Made by a program: the position numbers and the translations under genes
The notes under the pieces: generated by a model
The model's input: only the letters and a program-made list of their open reading frames with translations
Database searches by the model: none
Told to the model about the DNA's origin: nothing
Shown: positions 19,910 to 21,986 of the stretch, piece by piece
Layout of the letters: each line of letters begins with the position of its first letter
Position numbering within the stretch: the stretch's first letter is position 1
Origin: Eledone cirrhosa
Taxonomy: Eukaryota
Reading direction: 5' to 3'
Length of the DNA stretch: 64,000 nt
Assembly (NCBI GenBank): GCA_964016885.1
Contig: OZ024753.1
Span: forward strand, 36,642,001-36,706,000

Positions 19910-20128
19910 GGCGGACTGGCCAGGTTGCCCAATGGCAAGGGGACCCCAGAGGCCATGAACGACAACTACAACACTTTCTTTTGAAAATTTTGAAAGTAGG
20001 TTTATAAGTATGAATTTTCGTAAGATTTTCGTAGTTGTCTCTGTGGCCTAGCGATAGGAACTAGAGACGGTGAAATCCTGGCATTGGGTTCAATCCTGGT
20101 CAAGAGATGTTACGCAACATCGATGTTA

Positions 20129-20509
20129 CGCAACATCGTATACAAATGTACTATCGAATCGGATAGACAGAAGTGGTACTATGTGGGATCTACAGCCACC
20201 TCCTTGAAATCACGCCTTTATAGACATCGTTATTCGATAAAACATGAAAACCAGCGTTATGTAACAACACTCGCAGACAAGGCTTGGCAGCTGCGTGAAA
20301 ATAACCAACAATTTCACCTAAAATGGGATATAATAGCGGCTGCCCCCCCATATTCCAATGGACAGGAATTTTGTAAATTATGTAATGTAGAATTATTTTG
20401 TATTATGAAATCCAAAAACATTTTATTAAATAACAGAATAGAGCGATCGTTATACTGTAACCATCGCTTAAAATCTACATTTTCATATTATAAATACTAC
20501 CAGGATTGA
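20129..20509 (+). CDS. GIY-YIG endonuclease, C-terminal part of a 5'-truncated Penelope-like retroelement ORF
   Basis: NIVYKC...YYVGST...LKSRLYRH...W.I...Y..G...CKLCNVE..I.....LLNNR.E....C.H; GIY-YIG motifs with conserved Arg, Glu and Asn; uninterrupted to the stop codon, followed by a UTR-like stretch to ~21160. Confidence 0.85.
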   Translation, partial: RNIVYKCTIESDRQKWYYVGSTATSLKSRLYRHRYSIKHENQRYVTTLADKAWQLRENNQQFHLKWDIIAAAPPYSNGQEFCKLCNVELFCIMKSKNILLNNRIERSLYCNHRLKSTFSYYKYYQD

Positions 20510-21157
20510 ACGCCTGTCTCTATCCCCGTTTGATTGTCAAAATAGATATGAACATTCTTTATTAGTCTTAATTCTATCAACTCTTCTATTACTTAATACT
20601 AACTGCTATAGATAATACTAACTGCTATAGATAAAATGAGATTTCTGATTTTTTGATTCAATTCCCTAGTGCAAATACTAGCTGACTACTAGCATTGATG
20701 TTATTTAGTAGCAATCGAAATCTCCCCCTTCCCCAATTGCCACTTTATGATTAATACTACTGCACCAAATGACCAGCCCTGTCCACTGTCCAGTTGGTCA
20801 AGTAGAGATTAAAATCGGCACTCCCAAAATTCTTATTTAGATTTACTCATGGTATTCTCATTAAAAACCCATTATATACTTGTTTAGCAGTAAATTATTT
20901 TACCATCTGTCATATTCTATCCCCTCTGTTCCTTCCTCTTTTACTAATATAAATACTTCAATTTTTCTGATTTTATCCAGTTTATCCAAAATCTCTGAAG
21001 AAGTGACAACTGATTATACATTTGCTATCGAATACTTGCTAACATTATATGATTACGCAAGCAGCGATACATAGGTATTCGGTCTGTTACAGAAACATAT
21101 GTCAATACCTAATAAATTCCTTTTTTAACAAAAGCACTTTCATTTTATATTCATCCT

Positions 21158-21194
<37 letters not shown>

Positions 21195-21208
21195 CATATA
21201 TGTATATA

Positions 21209-21248
<40 letters not shown>

Positions 21249-21426
21249 ATTTCATATATATATATAATAATATATATATATATAATTTATTTATTAATGT
21301 TCGTACACGGTACAAAATCGGTACCCAAGGTTTCAGGCCCAATATTGACCCTATCGCCAGAATTTACAAGGAGGATCAAAATTGTGACCCATCTTCAGGC
21401 GCTTATGAGTATATATATATGCATAT

Positions 21427-21472
<46 letters not shown>

Positions 21473-21473
<1 letters not shown>

Positions 21474-21850
21474 GTTTTAATATAGATGAGATTCTACAGG
21501 ACTAGAACTGTTTCATTCATTAGAAATCATCAGGAATAACAGACCGAATACCTATGTATCGCTGCTTGCGTAATCATATAATGTTAGCAAGTATTCGATA
21601 GCAAATGTATAATCAGTTGTCACTTCTTCAGAGATTTTGGATAAACTGGATAAAATCAGAAAAATTGAAGTATTTATATTAGTAAAAGAGGAAGGAACAG
21701 AGGGGATAGAATATGACAGATTCCTGATGATTTCTAATGAATGAAACAGTTCTAGTCCTGTAGAATCTCATCTATATTAAAACTATTATACTCTGCTATG
21801 TATTGAGTACCTTACTTACTGTGGTTACCTCCGATTCAACCCGGAATAAC

Positions 21851-21852
<2 letters not shown>
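21473..21852 (+). mobile_element. P1 fold-back insert with a captured 185-bp spacer; hammerhead at 21718-21768
   Basis: Standard P1 arms and tail; 21537-21721 is the reverse complement of 20905-21089. Confidence 0.9.
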
Positions 21853-21884
<32 letters not shown>

Positions 21885-21885
21885 C

Positions 21886-21938
<53 letters not shown>

Positions 21939-21939
21939 C

Positions 21940-21986
<47 letters not shown>

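Follow-up and report, generated by a model that had tools for sequence, protein, structure and literature searches.

The stretch of DNA analysed here (the window; 64,000 nucleotides of Eledone cirrhosa, contig OZ024753.1, positions 36,642,001 to 36,706,000) contains a head-to-head pair of copies of a short repeat, P1, inserted in a (TA)n tract and separated by a 185-bp insert. Upstream lies a truncated copy of a Penelope-like element (PLE) of the family that we call G. The features are as follows, with the strand given where one is assigned.

4211..4406: sister P1 hairpin, a long and a short arm joined directly
10547..11228: sister P1 hairpin in which the arms are long and the centre holds nothing foreign
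20106..20137: short filler, repeated and inverted, at the G copy's 5' junction; a similar scar on a smaller scale
20128..21165, forward strand: 5'-truncated G copy, with the end of the GIY-YIG ORF and the 3' UTR, and the short family 3' end in (TA)n
20905..21089, forward strand: donor segment, lying within the 3' UTR of G (G positions 937-1121) and separated from the P1 insertion by 385 bp
21448..21473: left (TA)n target, read from the sequence
21474..21537, reverse strand: short P1 arm of 64 nt with hammerhead motif and no tail, probably a cDNA primed from the left flank
21537..21721, reverse strand: templated insert, an exact inverted copy of 20905-21089 whose junctions are unique in the genome
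21717..21721: 5-nt microhomology CAGAT, common to the insert and the right arm
21717..21851, forward strand: long P1 arm of 135 nt with hammerhead motif and a 68-nt tail, probably a cDNA primed from the right flank
21718..21768, forward strand: predicted type I hammerhead motif, from a motif parse
21852..21980: right (TA)n target, read from the sequence

The insert at 21537-21721 is identical to the reverse complement of 20905-21089 at 185/185 positions, and the match is not extendable at either end. This bears out what a sequence-only reading of the window had described, namely an exact inverted copy held between two P1 arms with CAGAT microhomology at the right junction. Its further statement that CAGAT rebuilds stem I of the hammerhead needs changing: this is no special feature, as P1 arms normally end at these bases. 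The left arm is a reverse P1 copy that matches those at 4279 and 10547 at 64/64 positions, and the right arm matches 11094-11228 at 134/135; its long-arm variant accounts for 14 among 105 long arms, three of those 14 being this locus. Both arms are shortened by at most 2 nt. Microhomology of the kind seen at polymerase-theta joins is present at both junctions, with five shared bases (CAGAT) on the right and one on the left. The 29-mer across the left junction and the 25-mer across the right junction each occur once in the 2.996-Gb genome. No repeated-round or patchwork filler is seen at this locus; such filler is found at the sister loci L114, L120, L134, L145 and L148, among others. If transcribed, the region 20895-21860 would pair donor and insert in a perfect stem of ~185 bp (minimum free energy -438.7 kcal/mol, z -40 versus 20 shuffles). 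A whole-window repeat finder and an unmasked self-BLAST were dominated by microsatellites.

The P1 arms are shown to span the opening 67 or 134 nt in the transcript unit of another PLE, one that codes for protein; P1 is the 5' leader of that element and carries a predicted hammerhead. In tandem copies P1 runs on into the PLE ORF, with a unit of about 4.55 kb; a classification of P1 as a non-LTR retrozyme, that is, as non-coding tandem hammerhead units, was rejected on this ground. The parent has frames of 556-657 aa with YRDD and YIG, the 5' end being frame-broken in the one tandem copy translated, and carries DKT, CxCX5C, CxxC and CxH, and has RWR instead of RWK. Immediately to the left of the window (L038:3-3793) lies the 3' part of a P1 parent with a GIY-YIG frame, followed by a microsatellite-rich 3' UTR of ~2.5 kb and then a P1 end. 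Related structures also occur elsewhere. L130 (G000:C1:86759235-86769234) is a head-to-head, retrozyme-like array of 310-bp tandem units with the P1 hammerhead core, and window positions 49723-50270 hold a hairpin related to this 310-bp family, with arms at 97.6% and an element-derived centre. A long inverted pair of degenerate trinucleotide repeats, with arms of ~630 nt at 80%, is found at 47490-48916.

The type I hammerhead of P1 is a predicted motif, for which the parse is complete: a perfect 6-bp stem I (AGATTC/GAATCT), CUGAUGA, a weak stem II, GAAA, a 4-bp stem III (ACAG/CTGT) and a GUA triplet. No hammerhead appears among the best 150 of 382 Rfam matches, which contain only microsatellite-driven miRNA, and in single-strand folding of the monomer the hammerhead is not the minimum-energy fold. 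Of the 59 arms terminating at the first stem I base, 52 show an additional G at a position where the template reads C, as expected of a copied 5' cap, which would place the transcript start at stem I. Extra-G arms are seen genome-wide, for example at the centres of L103, L105 and L110. P1 and its sister subfamilies form 3,749 hairpins whose centre measures 1-30 nt and 1,454 whose centre measures 31-400 nt; one long and one short arm make up the pair in 60/81 short hairpins and 10/11 long inverted pairs.

The donor is the 3' UTR of a young, high-copy PLE family (G, ~1,600 copies) and not single-copy DNA. Intact G has a 3,115-bp unit with a frame of 781-782 aa that contains RT and C-terminal GIY-YIG motifs (YRDD and YVG), and RWK, DKT, CxCX5C, CxxC and CxH are all present. 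The copy at 20128..21165 is 97.5% identical to such an intact copy; its Pfam GIY-YIG match (E=2.6e-4) falls slightly short of the curated cut-off, and across the two PLEs, the P1 parent and G, Pfam gave GIY-YIG matches of E=2.6e-4 and 5.9e-3, both below cut-off, and no RT match. This copy also has a 12-bp tandem duplication and several substitutions at 20592-20619 that are absent from 26/26 young copies compared. G copies end at position about 1197 or 1303 and then pass into (TA)n, and the G tail is 106 nt. A simple CUGANGA..GAAA search over 1,500 nt of G gave no hammerhead match. The head-to-head centres of G itself show overlaps of 1-7 nt in 10/18 cases and short fillers in most of the others.

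Both PLEs carry Hydra-clade motifs and a (TA)n target, by which they would be assigned to that clade. Partial tandems, an inverted 5'-truncated copy and a one-sided tail are all found in the P1 parent and in G, and the layout of an inverted 5'-truncated copy with one-sided tail in a (TA)n target is in print for EN+ PLEs, in the part of PMC8557442 drawn on here. The shared features extend, in the sections of PMC8557442 and PMC11167929 used, to RT with C-terminal GIY-YIG, copies in partial tandem and head to head, two 3' ends, a hammerhead motif (predicted in P1), the (TA)n target, DKT and CxCX5C; tails differ, at 68 nt (P1) and 106 nt (G) versus 30-40 bp in the EN+ PLEs. Those sections give no account of how the arms are joined or of filler at the centre. 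A literature search of main texts, with few subscription journals covered, yielded no account of filler in the centre of a PLE hairpin, nor is it described in the portions seen of 10.64898/2026.07.22.740005, PMC13282606 and PMC13586686.

Since the donor is a repeat of ~1,600 copies, local copying is not proven by the exact match on its own. The genome contains 1,621 exact copies of a 32-mer taken from the donor, 40/40 of the G matches scored are identical over all 185 nt, and this identical variant makes up about 14/73 G copies in the first 118 Mb of C1; in G copies from 20 loci outside that list, 19 full-length matches had 90-99% identity to the 185 nt. The spacer thus has the sequence of the local G copy and also of an estimated 300 others. 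The local copy has no distinguishing site inside the 185-nt spacer when compared with distant G copies, so that at this locus local origin is not proven by a diagnostic base. The finding that the donor is the non-coding 3' UTR of another PLE also disposes of the sequence-only reading's view of the event as a gene-fragment duplication.

The origin of the insert was instead approached through other P1 hairpins. Two patterns, which describe P1 hairpins with both arms stopping at stem I and a centre of 23-408 nt, gave 32 + 60 sites, and 81 hairpins were analysed among the 82 sites listed (50 of the 60 in the second set), with one of two C1306 sites set aside. Their centres comprise 56 that are mostly copies of an arm or of upstream element sequence, often in short repeated rounds, four simple repeats and 21 others; element-derived centres are thus 56/81, and flank-derived ones about a tenth. 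Fifteen non-element centres, chosen by eye from the pattern listings and, for part of them, before the flanks were seen, were compared by longest exact match with their own ±5 kb and with 73-74 other 10-kb loci (swapped flanks). Kept out of this sample were centres made up largely of element sequence or simple repeat, cases in which ordinary DNA lies between two distinct hairpins (L088, L094, L127, L128) and members of older subfamilies, which have upstream arms of their own. The own flank beats every swapped flank in 8/15 centres (7/14 without this locus), four inverted and four direct, with donors 94-2,484 bp away.

This locus: exact match of 182 nt, inverted, donor 385 bp away
L112: 66 nt, inverted, 96 bp
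L113: 40 nt, inverted, 2,484 bp
L120: 35 nt, inverted, 770 bp
L114: 16 nt, direct, 162 bp
L115: 26 nt, direct, 1,087 bp
L116: 27 nt, direct, 2,054 bp
L118: 84 nt, direct, 94 bp, a tandem duplication of flank plus arm

Two of these eight are low-complexity and one is the flank-plus-arm tandem duplication, and the tract length at four sister loci is 35-84 nt. The 66-nt sequence of L112 occurs exactly twice in the genome, as spacer and as donor, 300 bp apart. The L113 donor belongs to a family with 154 exact copies, one of them local (2.5 kb away); this third family is probably another PLE, and its copies (G000:C1 and C2) often form inverted pairs 0.5-5 kb apart. In L114 and L120 the local piece is repeated twice in the centre. 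The remaining 7/15 did not beat all swapped-flank controls: L117 is marginal (14 nt, 2 of 73 controls), four are short and scrambled, L121 holds sister-subfamily sequence, and the centre of L119 is another repeat with no donor in its own flank. A bias of donors toward the long- or short-arm side, examined by hand, was not seen (five short, four long).

The older GGAAGC subfamily gave 59 matches, of which the 50 listed are dominated by the element's own upstream arms; 14 were fetched at 10 kb, and L194 and L198 were left unparsed. Among the 14, L200 has the sole clear local copy, 71 nt at 93% from ~2 kb away, and L191, with a centre of ~130 nt, has no local match. The centres of L187, L189 and L190 proved to be element-derived. 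An older hairpin at L188:4976-5023 (G000:C17:27616883-27616949) has two tandem TTAGGG units at its centre and no local array; these units, which we take to be the animal telomere repeat, possibly come from telomerase addition at an open end. Other SINE-like repeats lie at the centres of older hairpins at L192, L193, L195 and L225, which suggests that hairpin tips attract later insertions.

Local copying is supported by these comparisons, because 7/14 of the sister centres tested match their own flanks better than every swapped flank. It is supported at this locus because none of the other 80 P1 centres (0/80) holds G sequence, and the chance of a G copy within 0.5 kb of a random site, by arithmetic from copy number, is only ~0.05%. 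This, with the unique junctions, also answers the concern that the spacer might recur in other P1 copies as part of the element. The 185-bp insert is in all likelihood a copy of the DNA 385-570 bp to its left, made as repair filler when the insertion was closed.

Such a filler can be placed in a scheme for PLE insertion. The PLE protein would nick both strands of the (TA)n tract and prime one cDNA per strand, from two internal start sites; nicking of both strands at AT-rich DNA, extension and two internal start sites have been described in vitro for another PLE, in the part of PMC11167929 available here. Synthesis of both cDNAs would continue to the capped 5' terminus of the RNA and off it, so that two non-complementary 3' ends with no designed overlap come to face each other. 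The flanks may then be resected or invaded, and one 3' end could prime on neighbouring DNA through 1-5 matching bases and be extended; when joining stalls, the template would usually be an arm and sometimes flank DNA up to 2.5 kb away. The extended end would be released and anneal to the other cDNA end by microhomology. For this locus two routes may be considered: the left end could fold back on its own strand (1-nt priming) and then join through the 5-nt CAGAT, or the right end could prime with 5 nt on the opposite strand and join by 1 nt. An inverted copy would fit foldback of the donor-side end, and a direct copy would agree with priming from the other end. Two cDNAs joined at their ends are the best reading of the hairpin, and either of them may be the priming end. 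The sequence-only reading, that a nascent strand switched onto the flank and back during integration, is thus supported as regards local templating at integration, to which the sister loci point, but not as regards a single strand that leaves and returns.

It is most likely that the copying polymerase is a host alternative end-joining enzyme of the polymerase-theta type, and the PLE reverse transcriptase or Pol delta could also have served. Polymerase-theta templated insertions are usually <25 bp, in the part of PMC12426944 consulted, and a tract of 185 nt does not fit this length. A bolder proposal is that PLEs leave a two-ended, two-cDNA break whose gap is filled by copying of long tracts from as far as 2.5 kb away in the flanks, carried out by their own telomerase-like RT and not by polymerase theta, that thousands of centres in this genome record this step, and that captures like the present one make perfect 185-bp hairpins from the 3' UTR of another element, which could feed RNA editing or small-RNA silencing of that other family; we consider this doubtful.

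Other histories of the insert have to be set against copying of local DNA. The RT extending the left arm may have jumped from P1 RNA to G RNA, of the neighbouring or of any copy, copied 180 nt and annealed via CAGAT. Read from the left arm, the spacer does run in the direction that a cDNA made from G sense RNA would have and belongs to the youngest G variant, the one likeliest to be transcribed, 'extra template' junctions exist for R2 (in the section of PMC11371274 used), and L119 and L191 are without a local donor. However, if the G RNA were non-local, the neighbouring G copy would be a roughly 1 in 2,000 coincidence, and the lack of G in all 80 other centres speaks against it as well. The other foreign centres are local, in both orientations, and one derives from single-copy DNA; moreover, the start of the spacer is internal to G, with 76 nt between it and the closest natural end. 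As a template, RNA transcribed from the adjacent copy would be indistinguishable here from the DNA of that copy. Overall, we regard a jump to G RNA as improbable.

The remaining accounts place the insert after P1 integration or outside biology. That breaks may plausibly occur at perfect palindromes in (TA)n lends some credit to a finished P1 palindrome having broken at its tip by cruciform cleavage and been repaired with local copying, and the resulting scar would look similar; yet end joining should erode the arms, which here lose at most 2 nt and at filled centres usually keep full 5' ends, often with the extra G, so that filling after insertion is very improbable. Still less probable is that a truncated G inserted later, with machinery of its own, at the centre of a P1 palindrome already in place, even though other repeats occupy the centres of older hairpins (L192, L193, L195, L225). 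Because the spacer spans 937-1121 and G ends at about 1197 or 1303, it is not an ordinary truncated G insertion; apart from the spacer no aligned copy ends at 1121, the spacer has neither tail nor (TA)n, and no spacer-free P1 hairpin is known at this site. The end positions already largely refute such nesting. An assembly or library artefact, a fold-back chimera, is hardly credible in view of clean junctions at the usual 5' end of the family, with microhomology, and of the same anatomy at independent loci on several contigs. No public record spans the whole insert in four contig sets, nor the left junction in three contig sets and one RAD run, which a chimera would explain, although these may come from other individuals, and the missing records are neither support nor refutation.

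As repair filler, the insert resembles several known scars, each of which we describe from part of the source cited. Polymerase-theta end joining (PMC12426944) likewise takes inserts from break-flanking DNA, with minimal-pairing priming, repeated rounds, patchwork and both orientations, but here the insert is 185 nt and the joined ends are two retroelement cDNAs. At the snap-back 5' junctions of R2 (PMC11371274) the cDNA 3' end primes on the cDNA or, more rarely, on nearby target DNA, comparable to the 56/81 element-derived and about a tenth flank-derived centres here; the R2 case is the joining of a single cDNA with target DNA, seen in engineered human cells, whereas here two cDNAs are joined together in heritable genomic PLE copies. 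In L1 inversion and inverted duplication (10.1101/2024.12.14.628481), a resected end pairs with itself over a few bases, primes synthesis and leaves nearby DNA duplicated in inverted orientation at the insertion, although L1 is poly(A)-primed, involves one cDNA and a reciprocal genomic end, and was observed in cancer genomes and cell clones. Foldback inverted insertions in yeast (PMC11724301) share microhomology-primed foldback at one end and end joining at the other; they differ in being mostly 5-34 bp, Pol delta-dependent and formed at an endonuclease break without a retroelement.

The locus is real and ordinary in kind, a long and clear example of locally templated repair filler. How PLEs form head-to-head insertions is called undefined in the part of PMC8557442 seen here, and the in vitro work, in the corresponding part of PMC11167929, leaves open the steps after first-strand synthesis. 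Hairpin centres provide a readable signature of these steps, in which the arms reach the RNA 5' end and join with microhomology and locally copied filler. Duplication by this route is modest in extent: among P1 hairpins, estimated to number 2,000, there are roughly nine copies of flank DNA, 14-185 nt long and lying within microsatellites. With >3,700 short-centre hairpins in one genome, tract length, reach and orientation are measurable and can be compared with repair mutants. Such scars are known at polymerase-theta, R2, L1 and yeast junctions; new here are that the joined ends are two PLE cDNAs, that the tracts are long and that the class is countable across a genome. With two PLE cDNAs as the joined ends and a class that can be counted, the last step of PLE insertion becomes testable.
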